Shown: positions 6,728 to 32,000 of the stretch, in pieces
How the letters are laid out: the number at the start of each line of letters is the position of its first letter
How positions within the stretch are numbered: the first letter of the stretch is position 1
Assembly: GCA_041494705.1 (NCBI GenBank)
Contig: JBGQBI010000004.1
Coordinates: 150,001-182,000, forward strand
Origin: Candidatus Methanoperedens sp.
GTDB lineage: Archaea > Halobacteriota > Methanosarcinia > Methanosarcinales > Methanoperedenaceae
DNA length: 32,000 nt
Reading direction: 5' to 3'
Program-made: the position numbers and the translations under genes
The notes under the pieces: generated by a model
The model's input: only the letters and a program-made list of their open reading frames with translations
Told to the model about the DNA's origin: nothing
Database searches by the model: none

Positions 6728-7216
6728 ATGGCATTTATTTTCGATACAGACATCCTCAGTGCATTCGCAAAAACAGACAGTTTGCCATTGTTAAAGAAAC
6801 TTTTCTCAAAACATGATGTTTATATAACCCCTGAAATTTATGAAGAACTGGAAATTCCAATAGATTATGGTTATAATTTTCCCTTGAAAATCTTTGAAGA
6901 ATTCGCGATTTTAACACCGAACGAGAAAGAACAAGAAATATACAGGTTATTCCTGAAAGCCAATCGCTGTATTGGAAGAGGTGAACTGGAAGCAATATCT
7001 ATTTGCATCAACAGAAAATACTATTTCTCATCAATGGACGAAGCTGCTATGTCGTTTGCAGAAACCAACGATGTAACCACAATAAGTCTGCATTCAATTT
7101 TGAGATCATTATGGGAGTCAGCGATTCTAACCAAAAAAGAAGTCCATGAACTTATTTTACGAATCGAACAGAAAGACAATACAAGAATAAAGGATATTCA
7201 TAAGATTCTACAGTGA
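6728..7216 (+). CDS. PIN-domain toxin (DUF3368-like partner of UPF0175)
   Basis: Acidic PIN residues occur in FDTDIL, GELEAI and SMDEAA. It is 162 aa and tightly coupled to the upstream antitoxin. Confidence 0.7.
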   Translation: MAFIFDTDILSAFAKTDSLPLLKKLFSKHDVYITPEIYEELEIPIDYGYNFPLKIFEEFAILTPNEKEQEIYRLFLKANRCIGRGELEAISICINRKYYFSSMDEAAMSFAETNDVTTISLHSILRSLWESAILTKKEVHELILRIEQKDNTRIKDIHKILQ

Positions 7217-7238
7217 AACGATAATATTAGACTTATTT

Positions 7239-7889
7239 ATGCCCTACGCAGCAAAAGACCGACAGGAATTCATCAAACGCTCAAACCTTGAGCTTGGCGC
7301 GCGAGTCCTCGATTTCGGAGGAATGCTTGGAGAGGAACTCCCATCTGCGGTTTTCGGGATTACTACAAAAAGACCGATGACAGGCGCCGTTCTCATAAAA
7401 CCCACACTATTGCCATTTAAAAATTCAGTATTCAAATCGGTTGTTTCATATCATTACTTTGACCTTATCCCATCCGACATTCTGAAGTTTGCTTTTGATG
7501 AGGCGGCGAGGGTATTGGACAAGGATTCAAGCTTTTCTTTCATGATAACCCAGTGGGCGGCGCAGAACGATGCGCAGCGCTCAAGCCTTTTTTTCAATGA
7601 ACTCCTGAAAAGCACAGGCGCTCTTTTCCAGCATGATTTCGAAGAAGTAAGCAGACTGCTCTCGGAATCAGGTTTCAGTGAAATAACAGCAGAAAGCGTA
7701 AAACGCGAAATAGTGATACCCGGGGATTTTGCAAGGTCGCACCTGTTGATGCTTGGAAATCTTGTGAAAAAAGAAAAAGAGCAGGGCGGGGAATTAATAA
7801 AAACTCTTGCAAGGCAGTATTTTAACAATGTAAAAGTCCACGGCGAAGCCATGCTGCCTGCAATTCACTTTACGGCCCGGAAACTATGA
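7239..7889 (+). CDS. Class I methyltransferase-like protein with a degenerate SAM loop
   Basis: VLDFGGMLGE stands in place of motif I. LPFKNSVFKSVVSYHYF and EAARVLDKDSSFSFM resemble Methyltransf_11 motifs. An ATGA overlap joins it to the next gene. Confidence 0.45.
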   Translation: MPYAAKDRQEFIKRSNLELGARVLDFGGMLGEELPSAVFGITTKRPMTGAVLIKPTLLPFKNSVFKSVVSYHYFDLIPSDILKFAFDEAARVLDKDSSFSFMITQWAAQNDAQRSSLFFNELLKSTGALFQHDFEEVSRLLSESGFSEITAESVKREIVIPGDFARSHLLMLGNLVKKEKEQGGELIKTLARQYFNNVKVHGEAMLPAIHFTARKL

Positions 7890-8485
7890 GAAAGAAACAT
7901 CTTGAGATACTGCTGGAGCAGGTCGAAGGCTTTCGGACCCCAAAACCATCAAAGGAACAGTACTCAACGCCAGCGACAGTAGCTTCGGAGCTGCTGCATT
8001 TTGCATTCATGAGGGGCGACCTCACGGATACGGTTTATGACCTCGGGTGCGGCGGGGGAATACTCGCAATCGGGGCAAAACTCCTGGGAGCAGAAAAGGT
8101 TATAGGTTTTGATGATGATAAAGAAGTTCTTGAGATTGCACGGGCAAATGCGAAGAGACTTGGCGCAGATGTCGAGTTCGTATGCAGCCGCATCGAAAAT
8201 ATTGACGGGAAAGCGCATACAGTTGTGATGAACCCGCCGTTTGGCGCACAGGTTAAAGGAAGCGACCGCCCCTTTTTGAGGAAAGCCCTCGAAGTAAGCA
8301 GCGTGGTTTATTCCATACATAATGCCGGAAGTCTGGAATTCATAAAAAAATTCATTAGCCCATCGGTCATAACAGAGTATCAGTTAATCGATTTTCCTAT
8401 TAAGAGGACATTCAGGTTTCATACGAAGGAGATAAAGGTCATAAAAGTCGAGATATACAGGATTGAGAAACGAATAGAGGGATAG
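7886..8485 (+). CDS. METTL5-like N6-adenine RNA methyltransferase (COG2263 type)
   Basis: VYDLGCGGGILAIGA is motif I and VVMNPPFG is the NPPF catalytic motif. 199 aa. Confidence 0.8.
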   Translation: MRKKHLEILLEQVEGFRTPKPSKEQYSTPATVASELLHFAFMRGDLTDTVYDLGCGGGILAIGAKLLGAEKVIGFDDDKEVLEIARANAKRLGADVEFVCSRIENIDGKAHTVVMNPPFGAQVKGSDRPFLRKALEVSSVVYSIHNAGSLEFIKKFISPSVITEYQLIDFPIKRTFRFHTKEIKVIKVEIYRIEKRIEG

Positions 8486-8508
8486 TTATTAGAATTAAAA
8501 GAAAGAAA

Positions 8509-9261
8509 ATGACAAGCAGGAGAAAGCTTGGGAAAAGCGATGCCAAGGAAGCCACAGATATAAAGGAAAGCGAGCTTGAACTGGAGGAAGAAATAGAAGA
8601 AATCGAGGAAGGTGGCGAAGAGACAGAACAGCCAGAACAGATGGAACAACCAGAGCAGCCTGAGCAACCTTCAGAAGAGACCGTCAGGGAAGAACCGGAG
8701 GAGAAAACAAGAGCCGTTTTACCCGGAGACCTTATCGGGACTTCAGAAGAATATTCGCCGAAAAACGGGACATATGTGGATAAAGGGAATATTTACGCTA
8801 CAGCCAGCGGAATTGTTAAGGTAAACACGAAGGACAGGTCCATTTCAGTTATTCCCGTTACCAAAACACCACCTCATATCCAGGTGGGCGATATCGTAAT
8901 TGGCCAGGTTACCGATGTAAAAGATTCAGTTGCACTGGTTGAGATTGCGGGGATAAAAGGAAAGGGAGAGCGGGAGATTGTCAATGCAGACCAGGCAGCC
9001 ATCCATGTTTCAAACGTAAAGGATGCGTACGTGAAAGAATTATATTATGAATTTGCCCCGTTTGACATCGTTAAAGCCCGGGTCATTGACCTTCGGAATA
9101 TGCGTCTCACCACGGTAGATAATGAACTCGGGGTCATGAAAGCCTATTGCGGCAATTGCAGGGCAGTGCTGAAAAAAGACAACGGTAAACTTAAATGTCC
9201 TAAATGTGAAAGAACAGAGACAAGAAAAATGTCTGTGGATTACGGGACAGGAATTGTTTAG
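8509..9261 (+). CDS. csl4: Exosome subunit Csl4 with an acidic N-terminal extension
   Basis: The LPGDLIGTSEEY N-domain is followed by an S1-like GDIVIGQVTDVKDSVALVEI and a C-terminal Zn ribbon (CGNC...CPKC). The first ~65 aa are an E/Q/P-rich extension. An alternative start is ATG 8641. Confidence 0.85.
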   Translation: MTSRRKLGKSDAKEATDIKESELELEEEIEEIEEGGEETEQPEQMEQPEQPEQPSEETVREEPEEKTRAVLPGDLIGTSEEYSPKNGTYVDKGNIYATASGIVKVNTKDRSISVIPVTKTPPHIQVGDIVIGQVTDVKDSVALVEIAGIKGKGEREIVNADQAAIHVSNVKDAYVKELYYEFAPFDIVKARVIDLRNMRLTTVDNELGVMKAYCGNCRAVLKKDNGKLKCPKCERTETRKMSVDYGTGIV

Positions 9262-10574: not shown

Positions 10575-11777
10575 CTATTCCCGTTCCTTTAAATTCGAAA
10601 TATAAATCCGGCAGGACTCTTCCATTCTCTGGAACTCCCGGATTTTTCCAATAAGTTCGGGGCTCCATCCGATTAAAGCCTTTGAAAGAGCATGGATATT
10701 CAGGTCTGAGACCTCTTCCCATTTCCCTGCTTCTTTGATAATTGCATCAAGCTGCTCTCTTTCTTTTTCCTCTTTTGCAGGAAAATGTGGTTTCTCCTCA
10801 ATCTTTACACGCAATTTCTTATCATTACCTCGGATGATTTCCACTCCTTCCCGTTTTGCATAGGCGACAATCGCTTCCTTCAGCAATTCAAGCTCTGCAT
10901 CTATATTATCAACCAGCTTTTTTTTCTCCATTGATTTCTCAACATACCGGTTCACAAGCAAAACTCCCGGGTCTTCCAGGTATTTATTAAGAGGCATCTG
11001 GCCGGTTTTGACGAGATGCATTCGCTTCGGGCACAGGGACTGGTAATCGCACCAGTCGCAGAGGCCGCTAACTTGCGCCTCGAAATCATTTTCCTCTTCA
11101 GCCCGTTCGATAGTCTCTATCAGCTTTACAATCCCCGACTTGAGTTCTAAAAGATCATGCGGCTGCCGTTTTGATTTTATCTCCCTGTCAAATACAAGAT
11201 AATGCCATACAAGATCGACTTCGTTTACATCCCCGAACATTTCCTGGACGCCAATCTGGTAAAGCGCAAGCTGCCTGTCCGAGTCAAAATGCGACTGCTG
11301 CGGCAGGTACTGTGAGGTCTTGTAGTCATGAATTTCATAAACCCCGTCGCGGCTGGATGAGAGCCTGTCGATAAATCCCCTGAGTTTATATCCTTCGATG
11401 TCGATTGCTATCATCTGCTCAAGTCCAAGGGTCTTCCCGTCATTGAAAGGCTGGTATCGTGCGTAATACTCACGGATGCATCTGGCGCCTGTGTCTTTAT
11501 AATTCCGTGGAGTGTAGCCTTCTTTTATAATCCTGATACCCTCGGAATAGTTCTTGAGCCACACGTCATCATAAAAAGAAAGAAGCTCTTCCGGCGTATC
11601 TGATTTTGAGAGGCGAAGGTCTTTATAGAGTTTCTCAAGCGTTTCATGGACTCTCGAACCCATGAAGGCTTCAATTGTTTCACTCTCATCGATTTTTATT
11701 TTATCCACATATCTCAGGCGGTATTGGAGAGGACATGTCTCGAACGCGGATAAACGGGAATGGGAGTAGATTGTCAT
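10575..11777 (-). CDS. PD-(D/E)XK nuclease with a Cas4/AddB-type Fe-S cysteine cluster and a C-terminal helical extension
   Basis: HSRLSAFETCPLQYRLRY carries the N-terminal Cys. IHDYKTS is the D/ExK motif and QLALYQ the QxxxY motif. CDWCDYQSLCP supplies the three C-terminal Cys. A ~150-aa charged tail follows. Confidence 0.8.
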   Translation of the reverse strand: MTIYSHSRLSAFETCPLQYRLRYVDKIKIDESETIEAFMGSRVHETLEKLYKDLRLSKSDTPEELLSFYDDVWLKNYSEGIRIIKEGYTPRNYKDTGARCIREYYARYQPFNDGKTLGLEQMIAIDIEGYKLRGFIDRLSSSRDGVYEIHDYKTSQYLPQQSHFDSDRQLALYQIGVQEMFGDVNEVDLVWHYLVFDREIKSKRQPHDLLELKSGIVKLIETIERAEEENDFEAQVSGLCDWCDYQSLCPKRMHLVKTGQMPLNKYLEDPGVLLVNRYVEKSMEKKKLVDNIDAELELLKEAIVAYAKREGVEIIRGNDKKLRVKIEEKPHFPAKEEKEREQLDAIIKEAGKWEEVSDLNIHALSKALIGWSPELIGKIREFQRMEESCRIYISNLKERE

Positions 11778-12960: not shown

Positions 12961-14316
12961 TCATCCCTTACCCATTTTGTCAGCAAGGCTTGCATTTAGC
13001 TTTTTATGCGTATATTTCCTTGCGTTCTTTCCTACATAATCAGCCACTTTATGCCCTTTTCCCATAAGCACATATTTGTAAATCAAAAGCCCTTCCATCC
13101 CGACCGGGCCGCGGGCATGGATTTTATTAGTGCTGATGCCCACTTCTGCGCCTTTACCGTATCGGAACCCGTCTGCAAAGCGCGTGGATGCATTCCACAT
13201 CACGCTGGATGAGTCCACAAGGTCGATGAACCTGCCGGCATTGCTTTTATCTTCGGTAACAATGGCATCAGTATGATGTGAGCCGTATTTGTTGACATGG
13301 TCAATAGCCTCATCCAGCGAATCTACTATTTTTATGGAAAGGATAAGGTCATTGTACTCTGTTCTCCAGTCTTCTTCTGTGGCATGAAGGAGGGCTTTCA
13401 AGAATCCCATTTTTTTTAATAACCTGAATGAACGCTCATCGCACCGAAGTTCCACGCCCGCCTCGTTGTATCTCTTTCCCATCTCAGGCAGGAATTTTTC
13501 CGCAATATCCCTGTGCACAAGCAGGGTTTCCATGGCATTGCAGACTGCGGGGTACTGGACTTTTGCATCATAGCATACATCGAGCGCCGTATTCATATCA
13601 GCCTCGCTGTCAACATACACATGACAGATGCCTGCAGAATGACCAAGCACAGGAATCCGCGTATTGTCCTGGATGTATTTCACGAACTCGTTTGAGCCTC
13701 TCGGGATTATGAGGTTTATGTAATCATCAAGCTTCAGCATCTCGTTTACTTCTTCCCGTGTCTCCATGAGCGCGAATGCGCCCGCCGGCATCCCTTCCGT
13801 GCCCTCGATGGCGTTCACGAGCACATCGAAGATTGTCCTGTTTGAGTGCGCAGCCTCGCTTCCACCTTTGAAGATGGTAGCATTGCCGCTTTTCAGGCAG
13901 AGCGACATAATCTGCGGCACAACGTCGGGACGGGATTCAAAAATGACGCCGATTAATCCGATGGGACAGCTTACCTGAAAAAGTTCAAGACCGCTGTCAA
14001 GTTCAAGTGCGGAAAGTGTCTTTCCTACCGGGTCTTCGAATTTGATGACGTCTTTGATGCCTGCTATCATCTCGTCTATCTTGATTTCGTCCACTTTCAG
14101 CCTTTTGATAATGGCTTTTGGAAGCTTGCCTGCTTCTACGAGTTTCTCTGCCGCTGCAATGTCTTTTTTGTTGGCTGAGATGATTATCTCCCTGTTTGAG
14201 TCAAGAGCCTGTGCCATCGAAGCGAGGACTCTGTTCTTTACGGCGCCGGGCACGCTTGCTAATGGGATGGAGGCGCTTTTTGCGAGGGTGACTTTGGTGA
14301 TTATATCATTGGACAT
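12961..14316 (-). CDS. proA: Gamma-glutamyl phosphate reductase
   Basis: 451 aa, aldehyde-dehydrogenase-like, with IFESRPDV, CNAMETLLVH (catalytic Cys) and ASTRFADGFRYG. Confidence 0.93.
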   Translation of the reverse strand: MSNDIITKVTLAKSASIPLASVPGAVKNRVLASMAQALDSNREIIISANKKDIAAAEKLVEAGKLPKAIIKRLKVDEIKIDEMIAGIKDVIKFEDPVGKTLSALELDSGLELFQVSCPIGLIGVIFESRPDVVPQIMSLCLKSGNATIFKGGSEAAHSNRTIFDVLVNAIEGTEGMPAGAFALMETREEVNEMLKLDDYINLIIPRGSNEFVKYIQDNTRIPVLGHSAGICHVYVDSEADMNTALDVCYDAKVQYPAVCNAMETLLVHRDIAEKFLPEMGKRYNEAGVELRCDERSFRLLKKMGFLKALLHATEEDWRTEYNDLILSIKIVDSLDEAIDHVNKYGSHHTDAIVTEDKSNAGRFIDLVDSSSVMWNASTRFADGFRYGKGAEVGISTNKIHARGPVGMEGLLIYKYVLMGKGHKVADYVGKNARKYTHKKLNASLADKMGKG

Positions 14317-14384
14317 GATCGATGAAGACTTAAATTTTAATTCTTTTACATCATTTTAGTTTTTATAGATATGGTTTTTCTAAT

Positions 14385-15824
14385 TCAAGCTTCTTTTTTT
14401 ATTATATATCTAGCTAATGAAAGCACCTTCTCAGCATCTTCTTTCGTGGCTCTGATTGTTCCATGAAGGATTTCATTTCTCTTTTGTTTCATTTTCATAA
14501 GAATCTCATAGTCGGCATTTAACAATATCTCTTGAAGATTGATTGATTTGATAATTTTGTCAATGTTCCACTTACTTATTTCTTTTTTGAATCCACCAGA
14601 AATGCCTTTCTCTTTTAAAAAATCTTCCCACTTTCCAGTAAGGTACTTTTCAATTATTACCCAGCTCATAAAAAATGATTGAGTATATTCCGATTCAGAG
14701 AAGTGTGTATAAGATTCGAGGAAGAATGGAATATAAAAACGAAGCTTAGGGTTATTCCAATATAGTTCGGCGTCTTTGAGCGTTTCACCTAATTCCTTAT
14801 GGGTGAGTTTTGTTCTCCTTCTAAAAAATGGCTCCGCTGACTTTTGTTCATACTGAATTGAGAATCTTGGAAGCATAGGTATAGACGAACCTCCAAATTT
14901 TTTTGAGTTAATGTCGTATTGGAAGTGTCCGAGTTCATGTTCTCGTATCACATACGACAAAGTTCCCCTTAGAAAAAAGGTGGCAACCAAGACATTGAGG
15001 ATTTCCAGAGCTACTTTGTTTTCTATTTCTTCTACTCCTACAAATCCATCATAGGTTGCGATAACATTTTGGCCATTAAATTTACCTTCAAAGACAACCG
15101 TACCGAATTTAATTATGTGTATTTCCTCGAATAATTCCTCTGAAAAGGGGACTTTTGGCGCCTTTCCAATATACACAGGTGGAAATAGAAATGTTCCATG
15201 CCACTTATATATGGGTTCGGAATGTTCTTGAATTTTCTGTGGTTCAGTCTTAGCTAATATTTCGACTGTCTTTTGAGCTTGCTCGTTTTGACAAGCATTT
15301 TTAGCATTATGAATTATCGAGACGACCATACTTGCTGGGTCAGCCTTAGTAATGTCTCCATAACAAGACCATATAGCAGAATTTTTCAAAAAATATTGTT
15401 TGTGAGTAGGGATGTCTAAAAAGATGGGATTGAATACATTTCTTTGAATTTCTCTAAGAATGCTTCTTAGATCCCTATCGAGTAAAGTTCTAACAATTGG
15501 TTCGCCTTCGAGAAAAAAAAGAACATATTGTTCATCTGTATCTATTGGAATATCCCAAACAGGGTCAGAAATGATTTTTTCAAATAGCTCGAAGGCTTCG
15601 TATGGCTTGATAGGTCCATACGCCCACACTTTTTCATCCTTTATATGGGGAAGATGGAGAATAAAAGTCTTGGTCAGCGGAGGATATTCAAATGTAATAG
15701 ACAGTATTTGGCACGGTTCCGTCAAATCATCTAAGTTGATGTTTTTCCTTTCGCCTTCAGATAGTTCTTTATATTTCTCACGGAACTCTTGAATGAGATT
15801 CTTAAACCAGTCTTCACGGTTCAT
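14385..15824 (-). CDS. 479-aa protein with a C-terminal HEPN (Rx4H) domain; N-terminal two-thirds unknown; internal HELGH
   Basis: KQKRNEILHG (R449...H454, nt 14463-14480) lies within a helical C-terminal ~140 aa (FFMSWVIIEKYL ... AEKVLSLARYIIK). HELGH is at aa 296-300 (nt 14925-14939). The gene is AT-rich: line 14581-14640 counts 20/60 GC. Confidence 0.7.
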   Translation of the reverse strand: MNREDWFKNLIQEFREKYKELSEGERKNINLDDLTEPCQILSITFEYPPLTKTFILHLPHIKDEKVWAYGPIKPYEAFELFEKIISDPVWDIPIDTDEQYVLFFLEGEPIVRTLLDRDLRSILREIQRNVFNPIFLDIPTHKQYFLKNSAIWSCYGDITKADPASMVVSIIHNAKNACQNEQAQKTVEILAKTEPQKIQEHSEPIYKWHGTFLFPPVYIGKAPKVPFSEELFEEIHIIKFGTVVFEGKFNGQNVIATYDGFVGVEEIENKVALEILNVLVATFFLRGTLSYVIREHELGHFQYDINSKKFGGSSIPMLPRFSIQYEQKSAEPFFRRRTKLTHKELGETLKDAELYWNNPKLRFYIPFFLESYTHFSESEYTQSFFMSWVIIEKYLTGKWEDFLKEKGISGGFKKEISKWNIDKIIKSINLQEILLNADYEILMKMKQKRNEILHGTIRATKEDAEKVLSLARYIIKKEA

Positions 15825-15998: not shown

Positions 15999-16163
15999 TT
16001 ATTTATAGTCCGAACTCTGGCCTTTAGACTTCTTTGGAGGATAGTGAACAGACCTCAGATGCGCCTCGATAGGCCCTTCCCAGCCTTTTAATTTATCAGG
16101 GTCCGCATCAATAAGCCTGAGAAGCTCGTCCTCATCTTTTGCTTCATATCTCTTGGATTTCAT
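15999..16163 (-). CDS. Possible small protein (54 aa), divergent from carA
   Basis: An ATG-to-TAA ORF translating to MKSKRYEAKDEDELLRLIDADPDKLKGWEGPIEAHLRSVHYPPKKSKGQSSDYK. It has backbone-like GC and is below the 60-aa track cutoff. There is no homology evidence. Confidence 0.3.
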   Translation of the reverse strand: MKSKRYEAKDEDELLRLIDADPDKLKGWEGPIEAHLRSVHYPPKKSKGQSSDYK

Positions 16164-16336
16164 AATAATCACTTCGCTTTGTTATAATATAATTATTCGT
16201 ACCAAACTAGAAATGATACTCCAAAAACATTTGCAATTGGCACGAAAATATGTAGATCTACAGGAAAGAGAGTATAGAACTTACACACATTTCCCAAGTC
16301 GTAATCTATTTACCATGCCTTTACAGTTTAGCAACC

Positions 16337-17434
16337 ATGAAAGCGGTACTCGGGCTTGAGGACGGAACATTTGTAAAAGGAGAAGGTCTGGGAGTGGAAG
16401 GTATTGTCCGGGGCGAGCTTGTTTTTACAACGCAGTACACAGGTTACGAGGAAGCCCTGACAGACCCATCGTATAAGGGACAGATACTGATGTTCACGTA
16501 TCCGCTCATCGGCAACTACGGCATAAGCGGCGAAACCTTCCAATCCGATAGGATGCAGGCAGAAGGACTGGTTGTAAGGGAAGCCTGCGACCATCCATCC
16601 CATCACAAATCAAAGCGCTCAATTTTTGAGTTCCTGAAGGATGAGGGCAAATCAGGCATCATGGGAATTGATACCCGTATGCTCACGATAAAAACAAGAG
16701 AGCACGGCACCATGAAAGCCGCTATAATAGTCGGGGACGATAACGGCGAGGAAGCTGTTAGGCTTGCAAGGGAGCAGCCCGATATAGGAGGTCTTGACCT
16801 GATTAGCAGGGTCACATGCAAAGAGCCATACCGGGTAAAAGGGCAGGAAGACGGGGGCAACATCGTGCTCATGGATTTCGGTGCAAAGAGAAACATCGTT
16901 AAAAGCCTGAACAACCGGGGAATCAATGTCACTGTTGTTCCTGCAACAACGAAGTTAAAAGATATCATGAATTACGAGCCGGATGCCCTGCTTCTCTCCA
17001 ATGGCCCTGGAGACCCGCAGCAGGCAATAAACGGCATCTCGGTCGTGAAAGAGCTTGCTGGACAATTGCCCATTTTCGGCATCTGTCTCGGGCACCAGAT
17101 TATCTCGCTGGCGCTCGGGGGAGAGACTTACAAGATGAAGTTCGGACACCGCGGAGCCAACCAGCCTGTGAAGGACAAAAAGAGGGGTATCGTGTACATC
17201 ACATCGCAGAACCACGGTTATGCGGTGGATGATAGCAGCATGGATGAAAAAGAGGTATCTATCACTCAATTAAACGCCAATGACGGCACTGTTGAAGGGC
17301 TTGAGCATAAAAAGCTTGAGATAATATCGGTGCAGTACCATCCTGAAGCGCACCCGGGACCTCTTGATACCGAGAAGATTTTCTTTGACAGGGTTGCTGA
17401 AACGGTGAGAAGGATGAAAGTGCTGGTTAAATAA
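16337..17434 (+). CDS. carA: Carbamoyl-phosphate synthase small (glutaminase) subunit
   Basis: Starts MKAVLGLEDGTFVKGEG. The GATase triad context is present: PIFGICLGHQ (Cys nucleophile) and VQYHPEA. Confidence 0.93.
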   Translation: MKAVLGLEDGTFVKGEGLGVEGIVRGELVFTTQYTGYEEALTDPSYKGQILMFTYPLIGNYGISGETFQSDRMQAEGLVVREACDHPSHHKSKRSIFEFLKDEGKSGIMGIDTRMLTIKTREHGTMKAAIIVGDDNGEEAVRLAREQPDIGGLDLISRVTCKEPYRVKGQEDGGNIVLMDFGAKRNIVKSLNNRGINVTVVPATTKLKDIMNYEPDALLLSNGPGDPQQAINGISVVKELAGQLPIFGICLGHQIISLALGGETYKMKFGHRGANQPVKDKKRGIVYITSQNHGYAVDDSSMDEKEVSITQLNANDGTVEGLEHKKLEIISVQYHPEAHPGPLDTEKIFFDRVAETVRRMKVLVK

Positions 17435-17658: not shown

Positions 17659-18639
17659 TCATTTCAAAGGTTCTTTATATCTCGTTCTGAAAAATTCTTC
17701 TTCATCCACTAGGTCCTTGAGGATATTTTTCTCGCATACGTCAAGAAAATCTTTAAAACAATCTTTGTCGCTAATTACAATTTTATTATTTTTAACTTCA
17801 AACTTTAGATAAGGAACCATTTTTTTTATTTTCGATATTCTATTGATATCAATCTTATCAAAACCACCCTGGAGTGAAAGGCGAGCTATTCTCTTTAAGA
17901 ATGCAGGTTTATCAAGTATTTGATCACGGAGATCTTCTTGTATTTCAAAATTTTTAAATGATGTAAGCTTTTCAAATACCTTCTTAGATTCATTTATATA
18001 AAGATCTAATAAAGAGAAAATCGATTCGAAGCCGTTCCTATTCAAAATATACATAATTTCATGAATATTATCTAATTTGTAATAAACGCAATCAATAAAA
18101 TCATCAAATTTACATACATCACCATATACACGATTGAATATGCCGTCCTTAAAACTAAATAAAGTATTTTCTGAAGAGATGACACTCCCCTTGGTGTATT
18201 TACGGAAATATATGACTTTATTATTTATACTTTTGAATTCAACAGCATAACTATGAAATCCTTCTATTGATCCTCCTTCGAAGGTTTTAATTTGATCTAG
18301 GTTTGTATGTTGTTCCATCCGCATGTCAATATATCTAAATGTTGGAATTAGAAGAAGATTTTCAATAACAGCTATGTGTTCGTGTTCGGGCAACAAGTCA
18401 CTCGCAAAGAAATCTTTAAACTTCAAATCTTGAATTTTAATAGTATTTAGCTGTGATACTATAGTTTTGGTAAATTTGATCTTTACATCGCCTGCAATGC
18501 TAACAGAAAATACCCTATTCATTTTTTCTGGCATACGGCTATTGCTTTTTTTGATAAAGTACATCTCTATCTGAACATCTTTTTCTTGAATATGTGCCAA
18601 CATCAGGTCAATTATAGATTTTGCATCAATCATCTTCAT
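17659..18639 (-). CDS. 326-aa soluble protein, KwaB/DUF4868-like by architecture
   Basis: Its start overlaps the upstream membrane-protein gene by 14 nt. I found no catalytic motif. The central segment FRKYTKGSVISS...CKFDDFIDCVYYKLDNIHEIMYILNRNGFESIF resembles my recollection of DUF4868. Line 18001-18060 counts 17/60 GC. Confidence 0.5.
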   Translation of the reverse strand: MKMIDAKSIIDLMLAHIQEKDVQIEMYFIKKSNSRMPEKMNRVFSVSIAGDVKIKFTKTIVSQLNTIKIQDLKFKDFFASDLLPEHEHIAVIENLLLIPTFRYIDMRMEQHTNLDQIKTFEGGSIEGFHSYAVEFKSINNKVIYFRKYTKGSVISSENTLFSFKDGIFNRVYGDVCKFDDFIDCVYYKLDNIHEIMYILNRNGFESIFSLLDLYINESKKVFEKLTSFKNFEIQEDLRDQILDKPAFLKRIARLSLQGGFDKIDINRISKIKKMVPYLKFEVKNNKIVISDKDCFKDFLDVCEKNILKDLVDEEEFFRTRYKEPLK

Positions 18640-19183
18640 TACACTCCATTATAATATTTTCATGTATAGAGACCGCTTTAATTGAAACCTCAAGTAATAG
18701 TTTATTTTGTTTTGTAAGAAGCATGTATTCGTTTTGAAATGGATCTTCTATTTTGAAGAGATTGTAACCGAATAAATTTATCATCGGGTTCACATATATT
18801 AAATTTGATTTAAGATACATAAAACAGACTACCATAAGTAATAGAACCAATAAAAATATATCTTTTATATTAGAATAATTAATGTTTAAAAATGGAATAA
18901 TGTATGTGACCAAATATTCTAAATAAATATGATTTAAATTTTCCTTGTGTTTAATCGTTATGTGTTTGTAGCCGTCATCTTTCTTAGATTCTCGCAATAA
19001 ATAGTATAAAATAAAATTTGAAAATATTATCACAATAAAAATTAATGAAATTCCAAAAGAAAACGGATTCCATTCGGTTATGACTTCATAATTATCTAAT
19101 AAAATTCTCAAACCTAATAGTGCAAATAACGGGGAATATGCACTTAAAAAGAGAGTGAACCTAACCCATTTCTTTAATGCCAT
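18626..19183 (-). CDS. 185-aa four-TM membrane protein, KwaA-like by architecture
   Basis: The hydrophobic segments are FTLFLSAYSPLFALLGLRILL, FGISLIFIVIIFSNFILYYLL, IYLEYLVTYIIPFL and IFLLVLLLMVVCFMYL. A ~60-aa soluble tail follows. Confidence 0.5.
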   Translation of the reverse strand: MALKKWVRFTLFLSAYSPLFALLGLRILLDNYEVITEWNPFSFGISLIFIVIIFSNFILYYLLRESKKDDGYKHITIKHKENLNHIYLEYLVTYIIPFLNINYSNIKDIFLLVLLLMVVCFMYLKSNLIYVNPMINLFGYNLFKIEDPFQNEYMLLTKQNKLLLEVSIKAVSIHENIIMECNEDD

Positions 19184-26317: not shown

Positions 26318-26381
26318 GGTTTTTCAAACCAGAAAATAATAAAAAGTCTTATAAATTAACTACTTATGCTGCTTTTTAATC

Positions 26382-27359
26382 CTATGGAACAACCACAACC
26401 TTCAGCGAGTCCTTCGCTTCCCCCGCTATCCTGAAACCCTTCTGGATGTCCACCAATTTTACCATGTGAGTAATCATATCCTTAACATTTACCTTCCCAT
26501 CTTTGATTAACTCAAGAGCCTCCTCCAGGTCAACAGGAGCCGCGCCGTAACTTGATACAAGCGTCAGTTCATTCCTCCAGAAAATCTCATTGGGAATCGA
26601 AATATTCTTATTCGGGATGGCGAAAAGCATAATTATCCCTTTCCTGTCTATGTACCTGAATGCAGCTTCAAAAGCAGGCATCGCCCCGGTACACATTACA
26701 ATCCTGTCCGCTTTTATATCCAGCTCTTCATTTGCATTGAATACTTCATCCGCTCCGCATTCCTCTGCCATCTTTAATCTATACTCGTTAATATCTGTCG
26801 CAATGACTTTTGCTTTTCTTAATTTAGCTATACGTATATTCAAAAGACCGGAAATCCCCGAGCCCATAACCAATACAGTCTGCCCTTCGCCAACCCCGAT
26901 TATCCTCTGCGCCCTCACGACACATGCCAGCGGCTCTATCATTGTCCCTTCTTCGTAAGAAACTTTATCAGGCAGTATGTAAGTACCTTCCTCAACGTTT
27001 ATTTCCGGAACCCTGACGAACTCGCTGAAGCCGCCTGGGTCGTAATTGCCCTTATGCAGCGTCTCACATGCGGTATGATTTCCCGAAAGGCAATATTTGC
27101 ATTCGTTGCACGGGACATGATGGCTTACGAAAACCCGCTGTCCTATTTTGAATTTATCAGATTTTGATTCGACTATCTCACCGGCCATTTCATGACCAAG
27201 CACACGGGGCGCTTTCTTTATCCTGTACCATTCCATAAGGTCTGTCCCGCAGATGCCTGATGCTTTGACTTTGACCAGAATCTCCCCGTTTTTTATTTCA
27301 GGTTTCGGCCTGTCCTCTATCCTGATATCGTTATTGTTATAATATACGGCGGTTTTCAT
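26382..27359 (-). CDS. Zn-dependent medium-chain dehydrogenase (threonine/sorbitol dehydrogenase-like)
   Basis: GICGTDL and GHEMAG are catalytic Zn ligands. CNECKYCLSGNHTAC is the structural Zn loop and VMGSGISG the Rossmann motif. ATG 27359 (MKTAVYY) lies 8 nt after the aldolase stop. Confidence 0.85.
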   Translation of the reverse strand: MKTAVYYNNNDIRIEDRPKPEIKNGEILVKVKASGICGTDLMEWYRIKKAPRVLGHEMAGEIVESKSDKFKIGQRVFVSHHVPCNECKYCLSGNHTACETLHKGNYDPGGFSEFVRVPEINVEEGTYILPDKVSYEEGTMIEPLACVVRAQRIIGVGEGQTVLVMGSGISGLLNIRIAKLRKAKVIATDINEYRLKMAEECGADEVFNANEELDIKADRIVMCTGAMPAFEAAFRYIDRKGIIMLFAIPNKNISIPNEIFWRNELTLVSSYGAAPVDLEEALELIKDGKVNVKDMITHMVKLVDIQKGFRIAGEAKDSLKVVVVP

Positions 27360-27367
27360 TGTTCGCT

Positions 27368-28147
27368 CTATTTGGATTGTTCGTATATCCCGCAAGCCTC
27401 ATCCACAGACTTACCTTCATGAACGATCGCCCTTACAGCCTGTATCATACCCACAGGACTATCGCTCTGGAAAATATTCCTGCCCATATCCACCCCGACG
27501 GCGCCATCTGAGATTGCATTATAAGCCATTTGCAGGGCTTCCATCTCAGGCAGCTTTTTGCCGCCTGCAATGACAACAGGAACATTACCGCACGCTTCGA
27601 CCACTTTCCCGAAATCTTCGGTATAATATGTTTTTATCATGTGCGCGCCCATTTCCACGCAAATCCTTGAGGCAAGGCCGAGATACCGGGCATCACGCGC
27701 CATTTCCTTTCCGACCGCGGTCACTGCCAGGACCGGGATTCCGTATTTTTCCCCTTCGTCCACGAGTTTTGATAAATTATCTATTGTTTCCTTTTCATAT
27801 TCCCCGCCGACATATACCGAGCAAGTGATAGCGGAGGCGTTAATCCGTATTGCATCATCTATATTGGTGGTTATGATTTCATTGGATAATTCTTTCAGGA
27901 TACTCTGCCCGCCCGAGACACGCAAAATTATCGGTATATCCACAGCAGGGTCTATCCAGTTCCTGATTGCGCCCCTGGTTATCATTAACGCATCTGCGTA
28001 CGGCAGCAGCGGCTCAACTGTTTTGCCAAGGTTCGCAAGGCCCGTGGTCGGTCCCTGGAAGTAACCATGGTCAACCGCCAGCATGACGCAGCGCCCTGTT
28101 TTTGGCTTTATTATCCGTGAAATCCTGTTCTTCATTCCCCAGTTCAT
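27368..28147 (-). CDS. DhnA/LsrF-family class I aldolase (LsrF-like)
   Basis: NWGMKNRISRIIKPKTGRCVMLAVDHGYFQGPTTGL, MIKTYY (Schiff-base Lys) and VDMGRNIFQS closely track E. coli LsrF as I recall it. The start ATG at 28147 is preceded by a GGAGG. Confidence 0.82.
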   Translation of the reverse strand: MNWGMKNRISRIIKPKTGRCVMLAVDHGYFQGPTTGLANLGKTVEPLLPYADALMITRGAIRNWIDPAVDIPIILRVSGGQSILKELSNEIITTNIDDAIRINASAITCSVYVGGEYEKETIDNLSKLVDEGEKYGIPVLAVTAVGKEMARDARYLGLASRICVEMGAHMIKTYYTEDFGKVVEACGNVPVVIAGGKKLPEMEALQMAYNAISDGAVGVDMGRNIFQSDSPVGMIQAVRAIVHEGKSVDEACGIYEQSK

Positions 28148-28169
28148 AATTAATATCCTCCTATAGTTT

Positions 28170-28379
28170 TTATTCAGGCCTGACCAGCAGGTAACCTTTT
28201 TCGATGAGCCAGTGATGGAATTCATAAGTGGTATGCAGGCAATTTTTCATGCATATTTCCCGCAGGTCATTATAATCTGATGATTCCTGTGTCTTTTTAT
28301 TCATCATCACCTGTATGGGACACTCAATATCGTTGCAGTATTCTCTTCTTTTGTACTCTACAAATCCCTCGATTGGCAT
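28170..28379 (-). CDS. Small four-Cys protein (69 aa), first gene of the aldolase operon
   Basis: Contains CNDIEC...CMKNC (a CX4C and a CX3C pair). Its stop is 22 nt upstream of the aldolase start. Confidence 0.45.
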   Translation of the reverse strand: MPIEGFVEYKRREYCNDIECPIQVMMNKKTQESSDYNDLREICMKNCLHTTYEFHHWLIEKGYLLVRPE

Positions 28380-28430
28380 AATCTCAAAGCTGATTCTGAG
28401 GATTTAAAATTTGCGGAAGGGTTCGGGAGT

Positions 28431-28476
28431 GGAAAAAGTTCAACCAAAAATTTAATAGCAAAGGTTACCTTTCAAT
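28431..28476 (+). repeat. 46-bp direct repeat, copy 1
   Basis: GGAAAAAGTTCAACCAAAAATTTAATAGCAAAGGTTACCTTTCAAT has 43/46 identity to copy 2. It overlaps the last 8 codons and the stop of the hicB-like gene at 28452-28676. Confidence 0.85.
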
Positions 28477-28676
28477 TCGCCGTGCCGTATTTTGACTATG
28501 AGCCAGCCTTCAAGGACTGATTCAAGTTCTTTCTGGCACTCAAAAAGCGTCTTCCCAAAAGCGATAACACCCGGACATTGCGGTATAATGCCGGAAAAGC
28601 TGCCATCTTCAAGCTTATCGTATTGCGCTTTGCTTAACGCTTTGTTAATATAATCTATAAGCATCAGGATCACCAA
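28452..28676 (-). CDS. HicB-family antitoxin-like protein, C-terminus apparently replaced
   Basis: KAQYDKLEDGSFSGIIPQCPGVIAFGKTLFECQKELESVLEGWLIVKIRHG matches the HicB-like pattern. The final ELKGNLCY is encoded by repeat copy 1. Confidence 0.6.
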   Translation of the reverse strand: MVILMLIDYINKALSKAQYDKLEDGSFSGIIPQCPGVIAFGKTLFECQKELESVLEGWLIVKIRHGELKGNLCY

Positions 28677-28941
28677 TTTTGCATTCTGTATTATAACTTA
28701 TTATCTTGATATACTTTTTTATACATATCGGTCTCCTTAAGCTGAAAGAGAGTAAAAATCATGTTAGGAAAGCGCATGTTGTTGATTATGATGCGCTGCA
28801 TATTACGGTTCCGCTGATAGCGTAGGGCACAGACTGTCGTGAATCGGCGGGGGCATCCCGGCGCAGGTGCTCGAAGGTTTAGCTTTTCTATCGGTTTTCT
28901 GTGATTCTATTTTTCTTTTCAGACGCATGTATTTAAAAACA

Positions 28942-28987
28942 GGAAAAAGTTTAACCAAAAATTTAATAGCAAGGGTTACCCTTCAAT
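28942..28987 (+). repeat. 46-bp direct repeat, copy 2
   Basis: GGAAAAAGTTTAACCAAAAATTTAATAGCAAGGGTTACCCTTCAAT ends 4 nt before the ATG of the second hicB (28992). Both copies are preceded by ATTTAAAA. Confidence 0.85.
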
Positions 28988-28991
28988 AAGT

Positions 28992-29237
28992 ATGAAAAGT
29001 ATGGAAAAATTCAATGTTACAGCTATAATCTGGCAGGAAGATGATGTTTATGTTTCAAAATGCCCTGAACTTGACGTTGCAAGTGCAGGCGACACGCCTG
29101 AGGAAGCTCTTCTTAACCTGAAAGAGGCGGTTGAATTATATATAGAGAATGCAAAAGCCCTGGGAATTTTAAATGATTTTGCTGCATCCATACATTCCCC
29201 AAATAAATTCACGTCAACTATTGGTGTGGCCGTGTGA
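28992..29237 (+). CDS. hicB: HicB/UPF0150-family antitoxin
   Basis: FNVTAIIWQEDDVYVSKCPELDVASAGDTPEEALLNLKEAVELYIEN is the classic HicB N-domain pattern. Confidence 0.75.
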   Translation: MKSMEKFNVTAIIWQEDDVYVSKCPELDVASAGDTPEEALLNLKEAVELYIENAKALGILNDFAASIHSPNKFTSTIGVAV

Positions 29238-29272
29238 GTAAACTTCCTTCTGTTTCATCTGAAAAAATATAG
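29234..29272 (+). pseudogene. hicA: Truncated hicA toxin remnant (12 codons)
   Basis: The GTG overlaps the hicB stop in a GTGA junction. It encodes (M)SKLPSVSSEKI and then TAG. This matches the HicA N-terminus (M.KLP.vSgkEvik...), but the dsRBD-like body is absent and AT-rich island sequence follows. Confidence 0.55.
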
Positions 29273-29314
29273 AAATCATTAGATTTTAGAATTGTACCAT
29301 TCTTATTAATGAAA

Positions 29315-30190
29315 TTATAATTCTTCAAAGATAATGTCTCGTAGCTGAATTTTTATTTTAATCCTATTTACCTTATTATTTGACCGAATGAGAGAAAAAT
29401 AACCCTTATCAATATTATTCAACGTATCAATCAATTTTTGTTTTTGATCCATATCGAATATTTTATTATCAAAGATTTTCCTCAACAAAAATAAAGCTCT
29501 ATCTTTATTAATAGAACCATCTTCTTTTAATATATCAACATAAATCCCATGTGTCTTCCCAGATGCAACTTTGAATATATTACCGGTTTTTTTCGGAATT
29601 TCGTCTAATCTTCTTAAATTTGAGAGAATTGAATCTTCACCAACAACTTTTGAATCCCATATTTTATCCAAATCACTGACATCTTTGGGATAATGCTTTT
29701 TTAATAGTTCAACAGCGAAATCTGCAGAATGAGCAAACTCGGATTTATTTGATTCATCGACATAAAGTGATAAATCTGGTGAAAATGCATATAATCCAAG
29801 GACTGTGAATAGAATCACTTTATCTTTTGGCCTCAATGATTCATATTTTGTTTTCAAATTTTTTTCAAATAAAAGTGAATTGAGATCATTGAGATAACTA
29901 TCAAACTGATCAGAGAATTCAAGATTATATTCTAAAATAACGAGACCTTTGTATGTTAAGAGATAATATCCCTCTTCTTCGATCAAATCTAAAATTCCTT
30001 TATTTACAAGATGATCTAATTCAGACAACGAATATGACCATTCATCCCTTTTAAAACTGGTTGAGGAGAAAAATTCCTGGAGATTTTTTACAGGCTTTTT
30101 GATTAAATCAACAGAATATTTTCCTTTAGACTTAGAAATTTTTGTAATTAGAAACTCTTTGTATTCTGGTTTTAAGTAATATTGGGGCAA
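29315..30190 (-). CDS. 291-aa protein of unknown function, possible N-terminal winged helix; partner of the upstream ATPase
   Basis: SELDHLVNKGILDLIEEEGYYLLTYKGLVILE is wHTH-like and the rest is unrecognised. It starts 12 nt after the ATPase stop and is very AT-rich. Confidence 0.55.
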   Translation of the reverse strand: MPQYYLKPEYKEFLITKISKSKGKYSVDLIKKPVKNLQEFFSSTSFKRDEWSYSLSELDHLVNKGILDLIEEEGYYLLTYKGLVILEYNLEFSDQFDSYLNDLNSLLFEKNLKTKYESLRPKDKVILFTVLGLYAFSPDLSLYVDESNKSEFAHSADFAVELLKKHYPKDVSDLDKIWDSKVVGEDSILSNLRRLDEIPKKTGNIFKVASGKTHGIYVDILKEDGSINKDRALFLLRKIFDNKIFDMDQKQKLIDTLNNIDKGYFSLIRSNNKVNRIKIKIQLRDIIFEEL

Positions 30191-30202
30191 ATCATCACCT
30201 AC

Positions 30203-32000
30203 TTACACAGGGACAGGGTCCCAGGTAATCTCTGACACTTTGCTGTCTGCTATGGTAATTAGTGCAAATATCGTTTCACCTTTTTTAATCTGGCTCTTTA
30301 TCTCATCAACCAATATTCCAATGTTTTTTTCATCCATATGCCCGATTTCATCTACCAATATGATCTTCTTTTTCCCACCAAAATTCTGCTTTATACGGGA
30401 TAAAATTGAATTTAGGGCGGTATGACCAGTTCCCATCTGAACAAATTTGATCGGTTTTCTATTTTTTACAATATATTGTCTGTTTACAAGATCGACTTTT
30501 TCGACTACCCAAGATTTTTTCTCAAAGTATACATTTTGTAGAATTTCAGCAAAATATTCGGATAAAGCATCAAACAATTCTTTTGCATGCTTATAATCAA
30601 TCCCCATATCTGTCTTTCTGAAATCAACCGGTTCGAGAGCCTTTTTCCATTTGTTTACTTTTGATATCAAATCAAAACATTTAGCAGATTCTTCCTCTAG
30701 CCAATCTTCATCAAATGCAGGTAGGGTCTCTAATTCACCTAATTGTTCAATAAGAGCAACCAATGTCTTTTCTTTCTGTCCCAAGCTTGCAATCTCTATT
30801 TCTAAATCTTCAAATTCTTTTTTTGTCCTTTTATATTGTTCACGTTGTCCGGGATTATCTAGAATTTCATCGATCTCATTTTCGGACAATGATTCAACAA
30901 TCTCCTCATGTTTCGAAGATTCCTTCTCCAAAAGGTCTAATTTGCTTTCCAATTTCTTAATTTCCTTTTCAATCTGATCATATTCATACATTTGTTCTTC
31001 ATCGACATCAGGAATTTTATCACGCTTTACTTTGAGATCAGAAAGATATACTGAAAGTTTATTTAATTCGCTGCTAACTTCAGCCAAATCTCGTTTTTTC
31101 AAGATTTTAGGTTCTAATTGTTTGTTAAATTCATCTAACTCTTTATAAAATGAAAAAATATTTTTTTCATCGGTCCCGGGAACATTCATTTCAAGACTTA
31201 AATATCCCCTTAAAACTTCCATAATTTTATTGATTAATTCAGATTGTTTCTCTTCTTGTTTGAATTTCTCATTAAGAGGGTCATTTTTAAGATCCAAAAT
31301 GATTTTTTTTACATCATCAGTCCATTCTTCAATATTTTTTATTGCTATTTCTTTAGGACTATATAATTCATTAAGTTTTTTTTCAATTTTTTTAATAAAT
31401 GTGAGGTTTTCTTCTGATAAAATTTCACGATATTTTTTTATTAAAGATAGAGATTTTTTAGTGTTACTATTAACTATATTAAATTCAGTGACTTGTTGTT
31501 TGAACTTGGGGGTTCCACCGCCTAAACCTTTCTGCTTTAAATTTGTTCTTTTTTCCTTTAGACTAACTAATTCATTTTCATTTTGTTCATATAAATCCTC
31601 TATTTCGTAATATGAAATTACTTTATCAGCTATCTCTAATTTTGAGACTTCCGCTTCCACTCTATTTTTCAATTCTTTTTTATTTTCTAGTTCTCTCTTA
31701 GTTTCTTCCAATATACCCTTATTTTTTTGAATCTTTTTATCTTTCTCCTTAAAATCTATTATTTGAGTCCTTTTGTTACCCAAATCTTGGTCATATCTTG
31801 TGAGATATCTTTCATAATCTATGAGATTCTCTCTAATGAGACGAACCGATGATTGGAGTTTGACCAATGGATCATCCGGAACATCATAAAGTACTTGAAT
31901 ATTCTCATTAAAATATTCAGAACCTACGGGTTCACCATTTAATTTTGTATTCAGTGAACCTTTATCATATTGAGAATAGATTTCCATGAGACCATCCTTG
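30203..32000 (-). CDS. Coiled-coil ABC/SMC-Rad50-like ATPase (C-terminal head half visible); possibly continues beyond the window
   Basis: About 450 aa of heptad-rich K/E/L sequence precede FVQMGTGHTALNSIL (a degenerate signature-like motif) and KKIILVDEIGHMD (Walker B plus D-loop, nt 30332-30364). There is no Walker A in the window. The first ATG is at 31987, but the frame stays open (KDGL-M) to position 32000. Confidence 0.65.
   Translation of the reverse strand, partial: KDGLMEIYSQYDKGSLNTKLNGEPVGSEYFNENIQVLYDVPDDPLVKLQSSVRLIRENLIDYERYLTRYDQDLGNKRTQIIDFKEKDKKIQKNKGILEETKRELENKKELKNRVEAEVSKLEIADKVISYYEIEDLYEQNENELVSLKEKRTNLKQKGLGGGTPKFKQQVTEFNIVNSNTKKSLSLIKKYREILSEENLTFIKKIEKKLNELYSPKEIAIKNIEEWTDDVKKIILDLKNDPLNEKFKQEEKQSELINKIMEVLRGYLSLEMNVPGTDEKNIFSFYKELDEFNKQLEPKILKKRDLAEVSSELNKLSVYLSDLKVKRDKIPDVDEEQMYEYDQIEKEIKKLESKLDLLEKESSKHEEIVESLSENEIDEILDNPGQREQYKRTKKEFEDLEIEIASLGQKEKTLVALIEQLGELETLPAFDEDWLEEESAKCFDLISKVNKWKKALEPVDFRKTDMGIDYKHAKELFDALSEYFAEILQNVYFEKKSWVVEKVDLVNRQYIVKNRKPIKFVQMGTGHTALNSILSRIKQNFGGKKKIILVDEIGHMDEKNIGILVDEIKSQIKKGETIFALITIADSKVSEITWDPVPV

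Follow-up and report, generated by a model that had tools for sequence, protein, structure and literature searches.

The AT-rich segment at positions 29,273–32,000 of a 32,000-nucleotide stretch from Candidatus Methanoperedens sp. (contig JBGQBI010000004.1; the whole stretch is called the window below) is best explained as the last third, at the 3′ end, of an operon of six genes acquired by horizontal transfer. Within the window, the segment carries most of the gene for a coiled-coil ATP-binding cassette (ABC) ATPase, followed by the gene for a 291-residue partner protein. Extension of the locus past the window end adds four genes upstream of the ATPase on the same strand, and the operon as a whole encodes a D12 DNA methylase, a NurA-like nuclease, a HerA-like translocase, a 41-residue protein, the ABC ATPase and the partner, in genes that are tightly spaced or overlapping. 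On balance we lean towards a methylation-linked, restriction-like immune system as the function of this island, which we regard as a candidate variant of the modification-linked, ABC-ATPase-centred restriction systems with NurA–HerA as effector; we infer both this function and the mechanism outlined below from gene content, conservation and linkage. The original prediction, made from the letters of the window, had pictured an undescribed ATPase-centred conflict system formed by the ATPase and the 291-residue protein, with remaining genes that may lie beyond position 32,000. The extended operon supports this idea and contains such genes (the 41-residue, HerA-like, NurA-like and D12 methylase genes), defence itself staying an interpretation, and the two-gene picture gives way to a five-gene cassette plus a methylase.

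The island, its operon and the conserved cassette

The base composition of the segment sets it apart from the rest of the window, with a G+C fraction (GC) of 0.299 at 29,273–32,000 vs. 0.436 at 1–29,272; the line 31,321–31,380 holds exactly 12 G+C, and both this count and the extreme AT-richness had been reported accurately. The locus was extended via a contig (L001; L-numbers denote loci) that was retrieved by exact-sequence look-up of the 291-residue protein. In reverse complement, L001 is identical to window positions 26,320–32,000 over 5681 bp and continues for another ~4.7 kb, providing the N-terminal head of the ATPase and the upstream genes for which an extension had been called. Across the island, GC is 0.323 in L001 vs. 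0.43–0.46 in the flanks, and each of the six genes lies between 0.28 and 0.38. In L001, an Aldolase_II gene lies on one side of the island, and genes for HicB-like proteins, an aldolase of the DeoC type and an alcohol dehydrogenase lie on the other. These flanks encode proteins that are 93–98% identical to those of a Candidatus Methanoperedens metagenome-assembled genome (MAG; L005), in which the island occupies the same site.

The methylase (276–280 amino acids) is a D12-class DNA adenine methyltransferase (Pfam, 2e-37; PADLOC MTase_II, 4e-115). The NurA-like protein (350 amino acids) scores 25.0 bits against the Pfam NurA model, for which the gathering threshold is 21, and its motifs YDES, IDGP, NSDxH and RxExH do not vary among eight diverse members (invariant residues D89, E90, D179, D231, H233, E276 and H278), a pattern compatible with an active RNase-H-fold nuclease. 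Precomputed NurA matches are stronger for the orthologues in L020, L021 and L022. The HerA-like ATPase (515 amino acids) matches Pfam HerA_C (3.6e-8), Pfam DUF87 (4.6e-6) and PADLOC HerA (3.2e-19), and its best PDB sequence match is Sulfolobus HerA (4d2i, 4.9e-6). The open reading frame (ORF) for the 41-residue protein overlaps both of its neighbours in L001 (ATGA-type), and every locus examined has a tiny ORF of 34–51 amino acids in this place, with an amphipathic pattern that is loosely conserved; in 11 loci it overlaps or abuts the start of the ATPase gene. The ATPase, the partner and the tiny protein are not recognised by any model of Pfam, NCBIfam or PADLOC, in keeping with the earlier proposal of an undescribed system, and PADLOC gives nothing significant for these three or for the NurA-like protein.

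Genomic contexts were taken from close ATPase homologues, distant ATPase homologues and independently found partner homologues. Every locus long enough to judge (11/11) has the genes for NurA, HerA, the tiny protein, the ABC ATPase and the partner in this order, also around distant members with an ATPase identity of 22–26%, and the gaps between the genes are mostly −23 to +12 nucleotides. NurA and HerA of distant loci are 34–49% identical to those of the locus in the window, vs. 15–29% for the ABC ATPase, the partner and the tiny protein; the five cassette proteins diverge together, at different rates. Between L001 and L005, two syntenic Methanoperedens-type genomes, identity is 79% for the ABC ATPase, compared with 93–98% for the flanking housekeeping proteins. 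Cassette GC is ~0.32 vs. 0.42–0.52 for the flanks in L003, L005 and L010, and the cassette is found in differing chromosomal contexts, beside HicAB-type toxin–antitoxin genes or insertion-sequence fragments. L007, a contig of 3 kb belonging to a MAG that was deposited as 'Proteobacteria bacterium', encodes an ATPase (36% identity) and partner pair at 32–2856; the pair represents either an inter-domain transfer or a binning error.

Coiled-coil ATPase and partner protein

The reading frame of the ATPase (30,203–31,999) stays open to the window edge, and the full-length protein encoded on L001 (P0001, 689 residues) is 100% identical to the part within the window. Of the two explanations offered earlier for the missing N-terminus, truncation by the window end (at residue 92) therefore holds, and an ATPase that is genuinely split from its N-terminal head is rejected. 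The ATG at 31,987, which had been considered as a start, encodes internal Met96 (...KDGLMEIY...), and the AGGA 7 nucleotides upstream of it is coding sequence (Lys-Asp-Gly) and not a ribosome-binding site. The Walker A motif (GTNDQGKTT, residues 34–42), correctly noted as absent from the window, lies just past position 32,000 on L001, and 68 distant members all share its G39 and K40. The signature-like motif, Walker B and D-loop recognised earlier are confirmed, and their positions are given in Table 1. Q612, G614, G616 and H617 of the signature are invariant, distant members being near canonical (MGTGQSQ). In Walker B, D641 does not vary among the 68 distant members, and the conservation of E642 is 90% or more. 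We infer that Q126 is the Q-loop glutamine. The histidine that is replaced at the H-loop position in this archaeal clade is present in the relative from L007 (LLTHADG).

An AlphaFold2 model of the ATPase, built from 20 homologues (predicted local distance difference test, pLDDT, 78.6), has a beta-rich N-terminal head half, near-continuous helices over residues 135–546 and a C-terminal head half, which bears out the coiled-coil claim; a globular hinge domain is absent from the model. The coiled coil is broken at residues 247–255 and 418–425, where G249, G251–253, T254 and P421 are conserved. At the apex, the close family has P365, G366 and T367 without exception, and 'IPG' is retained in the 68-member distant consensus. 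There is no cysteine at the apex, and a conserved cysteine pair (CxxC or CxC) is absent from the family alignments. Foldseek returns Rad50 as the top match of the model (7zr1, 2.4e-10, probability 1.00), with further matches to MukB, Smc5/6 and an archaeal (Pyrococcus) SMC head, also at probability 1.00, and to JetC; the sequence profile gave coiled-coil noise only against the PDB. Together with the motifs of distant members, the Foldseek matches support the earlier ABC/SMC/Rad50-like call. Those distant ATPases have textbook ABC motifs (GPNSSGKSTLL, a signature as quoted above, and LFDE..MMD) and match Pfam AAA_23 (36/68), as well as AAA_21 and SMC_N. An exhaustive hidden Markov model search yielded 355 family representatives at 50% clustering (E ≤ 1e-3; 266 at E ≤ 1e-10), nearly all of them 640–725 residues long and aligned end to end. 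The close clade comprises only 22 clusters at 90% identity among 5.8 billion proteins, and a DNA-pattern scan of metagenomes added two fragments and no more. The ATPase is a member of the coiled-coil (Rad50/SMC-like) ABC assemblage, having its Walker A, signature, Walker B, D-loop and fold and lacking the H-loop His.

As stated in the original prediction, the 291-residue ORF begins, with a TTG codon, 12 nucleotides past the ATPase stop, and a spacing of 10–12 nucleotides is also found in L003, L004, L005 and L010. In each of the loci that extend far enough (13/13), the partner adjoins the ATPase, and two of these loci were found by searching with the partner; the neighbourhood check that had been proposed for homologues of the 291-residue protein therefore came out in favour of linkage. 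Across the family the partner is 277–317 residues long and only 21–32% identical, with T79, L119, R194, K201, T202 and F240 invariant and a motif RRxDxxPKKTxN. The alignment contains no invariant Asp, Glu or His and, because none of the invariant residues is acidic or a histidine, the partner is unlikely to be a nuclease. Its AlphaFold2 model is of low confidence (pLDDT 61.8), and Foldseek against the PDB gave nothing at E < 0.2. The possible winged helix-turn-helix (HTH) that had been suggested for this protein finds weak hints in HTH_45 matches (E 0.1–0.3, in 3/8 members) but no significant Foldseek match, those to the winged helices of RTP, LmrR and H1 being at E ≥ 1 for a model of pLDDT 62. 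The partner was also tested as a kleisin, with no PADLOC match to JetA or LmuC and no Foldseek match, the latter again for a low-confidence model (pLDDT 62).

Table 1. Positions of the island, the ATPase and partner features and the border genes in the window (residue numbers in brackets).
Feature	Position	Strand	Remarks
AT-rich island, window part	29,273–32,000		Whole island 6.6 kb (L001 759–7401); ~4.6 kb past the window end
ABC ATPase, C-terminal 598 residues (92–689 of 689)	30,203–32,000	−	Cut by the window end
Candidate Q-loop glutamine Q126	31,895–31,897	−	Invariant in alignment; end of the N-terminal head strands
Coiled-coil insertion, ~410 residues (135–546)	30,635–31,870	−	Between the head halves; AlphaFold2 secondary structure
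Apex motif VPGT (364–367)	31,172–31,183	−	Position of the CxxC zinc hook in Rad50
ABC signature-like QMGTGHTALN (612–621)	30,410–30,439	−	
Walker B and D-loop	30,332–30,364	−	IILVDE, 30,347–30,364; D-loop Asp647, 30,332–30,334
H-loop position LITIADS	30,242–30,262	−	Usual His replaced; A675-D676 invariant in this archaeal clade
12-nucleotide spacer GTAGGTGATGAT	30,191–30,202	−	GGTGAT Shine-Dalgarno-like motif before the partner TTG
Partner, 291 residues	29,315–30,190	−	TTG start; no Pfam, PADLOC or NCBIfam match
Possible winged helix of partner (53–87)	29,930–30,034	−	Helix then three strands, AlphaFold2; low confidence
Best-conserved partner motif RRLDEIPKKTGNIF (193–206)	29,573–29,614	−	R194, K201 and T202 invariant
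DUF7387/HicB-like ORF, 81 residues	28,992–29,237	+	
UPF0150/HicB-like ORF, 74 residues	28,452–28,676	−	3.7e-26
Cys-rich ORF, 69 residues	28,170–28,379	−	No match

Methylase linkage, known systems and rival functions

A DNA methylase is present within 3 kb of the cassette in all loci with adequate flank (10/10), and belongs to either of two unrelated classes in varying positions. D12 enzymes are located directly upstream on the same strand in L001, L003 and L005, and within about 1.2–3 kb in L004, L008, L017/L018 and L022. N6_N4 enzymes are located directly upstream on the same strand in L021, and directly downstream on the opposite strand in L014 and L015. In six of these loci (L001, L003, L005, L014, L015 and L021) the methylase is solitary, lies 14–320 bp from the cassette and has no recognisable restriction-enzyme partner. 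The cassette of L014 is 61–83% identical to that of L001, yet has an N6_N4 enzyme instead of D12. Methylase class does not follow cassette phylogeny, and it looks as if methylase activity has been recruited repeatedly.

Several loci have additional genes around the cassette and its methylase. Three paralogous ORFs in L017 (774–1856, −; 7558–8616, +; 10,603–11,481, +), with the same genes in L018, surround the cassette and the D12 methylase and have an N-terminal 'homing-endonuclease-associated repeat' (Pfam HNH_repeat, ~8e-4). In L022, a 388-residue ORF between partner and D12 methylase (7174–8340, +) has a weak Swt1-like HEPN match (3.5e-3) and could encode an accessory RNase effector in that clade. 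In L004, a gene for a Schlafen/AlbA_2 plus HATPase_c_4 protein and one of the RhuM family come after the cassette (13,372–14,736 and 16,015–17,046), neighbours that are consistent with a defence-island setting. The ORFs between cassette and methylase were considered as a seventh conserved component, and this was rejected, those of L017, L022, L004 and L008 being mutually unrelated.

Full-text literature searches turned up no described system with this gene set; an earlier cataloguing of the ABC clade by Krishnan et al. 2020, who reportedly classified ABC ATPases, is possible. The closest described architecture is CxC-ABC/PbeABCD (Xiong et al. 2019, PMC6459918; re-annotated in PMC10853773), which shares the logic of the cassette, with each part different or undetectably related. 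Both occur in archaea, both spread horizontally, and both couple to a DNA-modification module, sometimes methylases. However, PbeA is a single fusion of an HKD nuclease with a superfamily 2 (SF2) helicase, whereas the cassette effector consists of two proteins, NurA (RNase-H fold) and HerA (FtsK/HerA class). The CxC clade has a CxC zinc hook, in place of which the cassette ATPase has (V/I)PGT at its apex, and the CxC/Dnd partner DndE has two ribbon-helix-helix (RHH) domains in ~150 residues, in contrast to the longer cassette partner with its possible winged helix. The PADLOC DndE and PbeD models do not match the partner, in which the corresponding element of the low-confidence model resembles a winged helix and not RHH. 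The Pbe and Dnd models of PADLOC likewise match no protein in the window, DndD and PbeC giving nothing for P0001 at E ≤ 0.1, and no Dnd genes are present near the cassette. Likeness to DndD/CxC does exist in the small, fast-evolving protein just upstream of the ATPase and in the ~400-residue coiled coil, but this is a likeness of architecture and not proof of homology. The weak PADLOC matches of the distant ATPases are thinly spread over LmuB (39/68), DndD (13/68), PbeC (4/68), PtuA, AriA and JetC, and look like generic P-loop similarity.

Because HerA and NurA, the archaeal partners of Rad50–Mre11, are present, the possibility of a Rad50–Mre11 locus needed checking. The archaeal HerA–Mre11–Rad50–NurA operon likewise encodes a HerA-type hexameric translocase, a NurA-type nuclease and a Rad50-like ATPase together, but it is a conserved housekeeping locus, whereas the cassette is an AT-rich, patchy island that lacks Mre11 and the zinc hook and adds the tiny protein, the partner and a methylase. 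With 689 residues, the cassette ATPase is also shorter than a typical Rad50 (~880–1300 residues). An Mre11/SbcD phosphoesterase was found in none of the loci, and the partner has neither a Pfam Metallophos match nor an invariant Asp or His. A canonical Rad50–Mre11 or SMC–ScpAB locus, which the original prediction had named as an outcome that would undo its novelty, is rejected by the lack of Mre11, zinc hook, hinge and ScpA/B; the patchiness of the island and the linked methylases point in the same direction.

Lamassu (LmuB), Wadjet (JetABCD) and MksBEFG likewise combine an SMC/Rad50-like, DNA-engaging ATPase with small accessory subunits and a separate nuclease effector, but the cassette ATPase has no hinge and a coiled coil half as long, and those systems have no methylase. 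SMC, MukB and JetC are recognised by an apex hinge and a coiled coil of ~800–1000 residues (PMC10853773), compared with ~410 residues and no hinge here. The cassette contains no KITE subunit, detectable kleisin or Toprim/Cap4 effector; LmuA and LmuC are not detected at the locus by PADLOC, and its LmuB model matches the window protein at E 0.047–0.098 only. BREX, DISARM and MADS resemble the cassette in that a methylase is encoded with several ATPases and nucleases in an island, modification-based distinction of self from non-self being presumed. Searches of the cassette detected no PglZ, BrxC, DrmA/B or mad1–7, the mad models do not match the NurA-like protein, the tiny protein, the ATPase or the partner, and the weak mad8 match of HerA (9.6e-15) is below its match to the generic HerA model (3.2e-19). 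Membership of MADS, Lamassu, Pbe/Dnd, Septu or PARIS was tested for each and rejected. Finally, a HerA-class translocase has likewise been recruited together with a nuclease and fast-evolving DNA-binding proteins in the anti-invader operons of the SIR2–HerA and DUF4297–HerA defence pairs and of 'HerA/FtsK capture' systems (PMC10853773, PMC12839542). None of these is described with the present composition, in which the effector is NurA and an ABC ATPase–partner–tiny protein module is added.

In the immune system that we favour, the methylase would mark host DNA as self and in this way protect the host genome. A dimer of the ABC ATPase would clamp or scan DNA with the non-catalytic, probably DNA-binding partner and the small protein, in an arrangement that would resemble Rad50–Mre11, SMC–kleisin or DndD/CxC–DndE complexes. 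This sensor would load or license HerA–NurA on unmarked or foreign DNA or its ends, upon which HerA–NurA would translocate on the DNA and degrade it processively, as in archaeal double-strand-break resection. In this machine, a HerA hexamer moves along double-stranded DNA and passes it to a NurA dimer, which degrades it processively; in archaeal repair HerA–NurA acts downstream of Mre11–Rad50. The fast-evolving ATPase, partner and tiny protein would then constitute the sensor–regulator half of the system, and the slowly evolving HerA and NurA the effector half; this asymmetry of rates fits an arms-race sensor. Stated in full, a hook-less Rad50-like ATPase, its partner and a micro-protein would sense foreign DNA and license HerA–NurA to destroy the unmethylated DNA of invaders, making the cassette a class of modification-linked immunity not recognised before and an immune 'twin' of Mre11–Rad50/HerA–NurA repair that is widespread in methanogens and archaea of the anaerobic methanotrophic (ANME) type, and possibly present in bacteria, for which the pair of L007 is the single relative with a bacterial label. 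We put forward this complete version as plausible but tentative.

A number of observations weigh against this reading. The partners of L014 and L001 are 68% identical although the methylase classes differ, which argues against a partner that reads one specific methylated motif. In four locus types (L004, L008, L017 and L022) unrelated ORFs separate cassette and methylase, and in L004 a small HTH protein typical of restriction–modification controller proteins is encoded next to the methylase; for these reasons, the more distant methylases (within 3 kb) may belong to neighbouring conventional restriction–modification systems. L010–L013 have no methylase downstream, and their upstream region is lost at an insertion-sequence-like contig end just upstream of NurA. 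The assignment of NurA is weak, given the modest Pfam match and a family profile that finds no solved NurA in the PDB by sequence, and the protein would be a divergent NurA member. ATP turnover may be slow or regulatory, because the H-loop His is missing in the clade and one family member has DD in place of DE in Walker B. For the partner, a role as DNA binder or kleisin-like bridge is a conjecture built on a low-confidence model.

A methylation-independent defence is also conceivable, in which the ABC ATPase–partner–tiny protein complex would sense a phage protein, DNA ends or DNA structure, as in PARIS, Lamassu and Wadjet, and unleash HerA–NurA, possibly on host DNA to bring about abortive infection, the methylases being merely co-resident. 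We consider this unlikely, if worth keeping in mind. Coiled-coil ABC ATPases do act as sensors in Lamassu, Wadjet and PARIS, distant members have their weak PADLOC matches to LmuB, AriA, PtuA and JetC, the window contains other defence genes (KwaB-like and AbiTii-like, see below), and the uncoupling of methylase class from cassette phylogeny and the variable ORFs of four locus types point the same way. The solitary methylases that abut the cassette in six loci, on the same strand in four of them, are harder to explain in this way, as is the low GC of the L001 methylase (0.308), which is like that of the cassette; the recruitment of two unrelated methylase classes suggests selection for the activity and not hitch-hiking.

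The same linkage to two unrelated methylase classes speaks against a paralogous DNA-repair module for non-canonical resection of double-strand-break ends. In such a module, Mre11–Rad50 would give way to a short Rad50-like ATPase with a non-nuclease partner, both acting with HerA–NurA on host DNA, and the nearby methylases would be incidental or used to mark strand or age. HerA, NurA and a Rad50-like ATPase are indeed the protein types of the archaeal herA–mre11–rad50–nurA operon, Rad50 is the top Foldseek match, and the shared chromosomal site in two Methanoperedens-type genomes suggests some vertical retention. Repair nevertheless seems rather improbable to us: Mre11 phosphoesterase and zinc hook are missing, the family is rare and patchy (see the cluster count above), the cassette has a higher AT content than each of the host flanks examined and occurs in unrelated genomic contexts, and between L001 and L005 the ABC ATPase is less conserved than the flanking housekeeping proteins. 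Least credible of all is a cargo or maintenance module of a mobile element, which would help an integrated plasmid or virus to process, segregate or package DNA, or would serve anti-defence or addiction. Archaeal viruses and plasmids commonly encode HerA/FtsK-type ATPases and D12 methylases, and the island is AT-rich; against this, no integrase, capsid, replication or conjugation genes lie beside the cassette in L001, L003, L005, L010, L021 and L014, five of these six loci are bounded directly by housekeeping or toxin–antitoxin genes (the neighbours in L014 being uncharacterised ORFs), and a search for att-like direct repeats flanking the island found none. Relatives of the cassette are likewise missing from 50,697 INPHARED phage records and 72,556 PLSDB plasmid records (tblastn), and from IMG/VR viral contigs.

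Neighbouring defence genes and significance

At the island border, positions 28,170–29,237 of the window contain a cluster of small antitoxin-like genes (Table 1). A HicA toxin was not seen anywhere in the window; in L003, a HicA/HicB pair flanks the orthologous cassette. Searches of the window for tRNA genes and Rfam elements found none. A second AT-rich islet is present at 17,659–19,183 (−), with a GC of 0.28 in 18,001–19,000. It encodes a 326-residue protein (17,659–18,639, −) that matches Pfam KwaB of the Kiwa defence system (4.7e-12) and, overlapping and upstream, a 185-residue protein without a Pfam match (18,626–19,183, −) that could be the KwaA counterpart; the islet may thus represent a Kiwa-like system in an archaeon. 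In addition, a 305-residue ORF at 3001–3918 (−), in a stretch with a GC of 0.34, matches the abortive-infection family AbiTii (Pfam, 1.4e-7) and adjoins the threonyl-tRNA synthetase gene (932–2857).

HerA–NurA is known as a repair machine, and HerA separately as a scaffold for SIR2 or DUF4297 effectors. If the island is indeed a methylation-linked immune system, a NurA–HerA effector under the control of a Rad50-like sensor and a methylase would directly join double-strand-break resection to restriction, and would provide an evolutionary bridge from Mre11–Rad50-type repair complexes to ABC-centred immunity of the Lamassu, Wadjet and CxC/Pbe kind. Neither Pfam nor NCBIfam nor PADLOC detects the families of the ATPase, the partner and the micro-protein, so that the whole cassette escapes current defence-finders. 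The cassette would also add one more defence system to the little-charted antiviral repertoire of methanogenic and methane-oxidising archaea.

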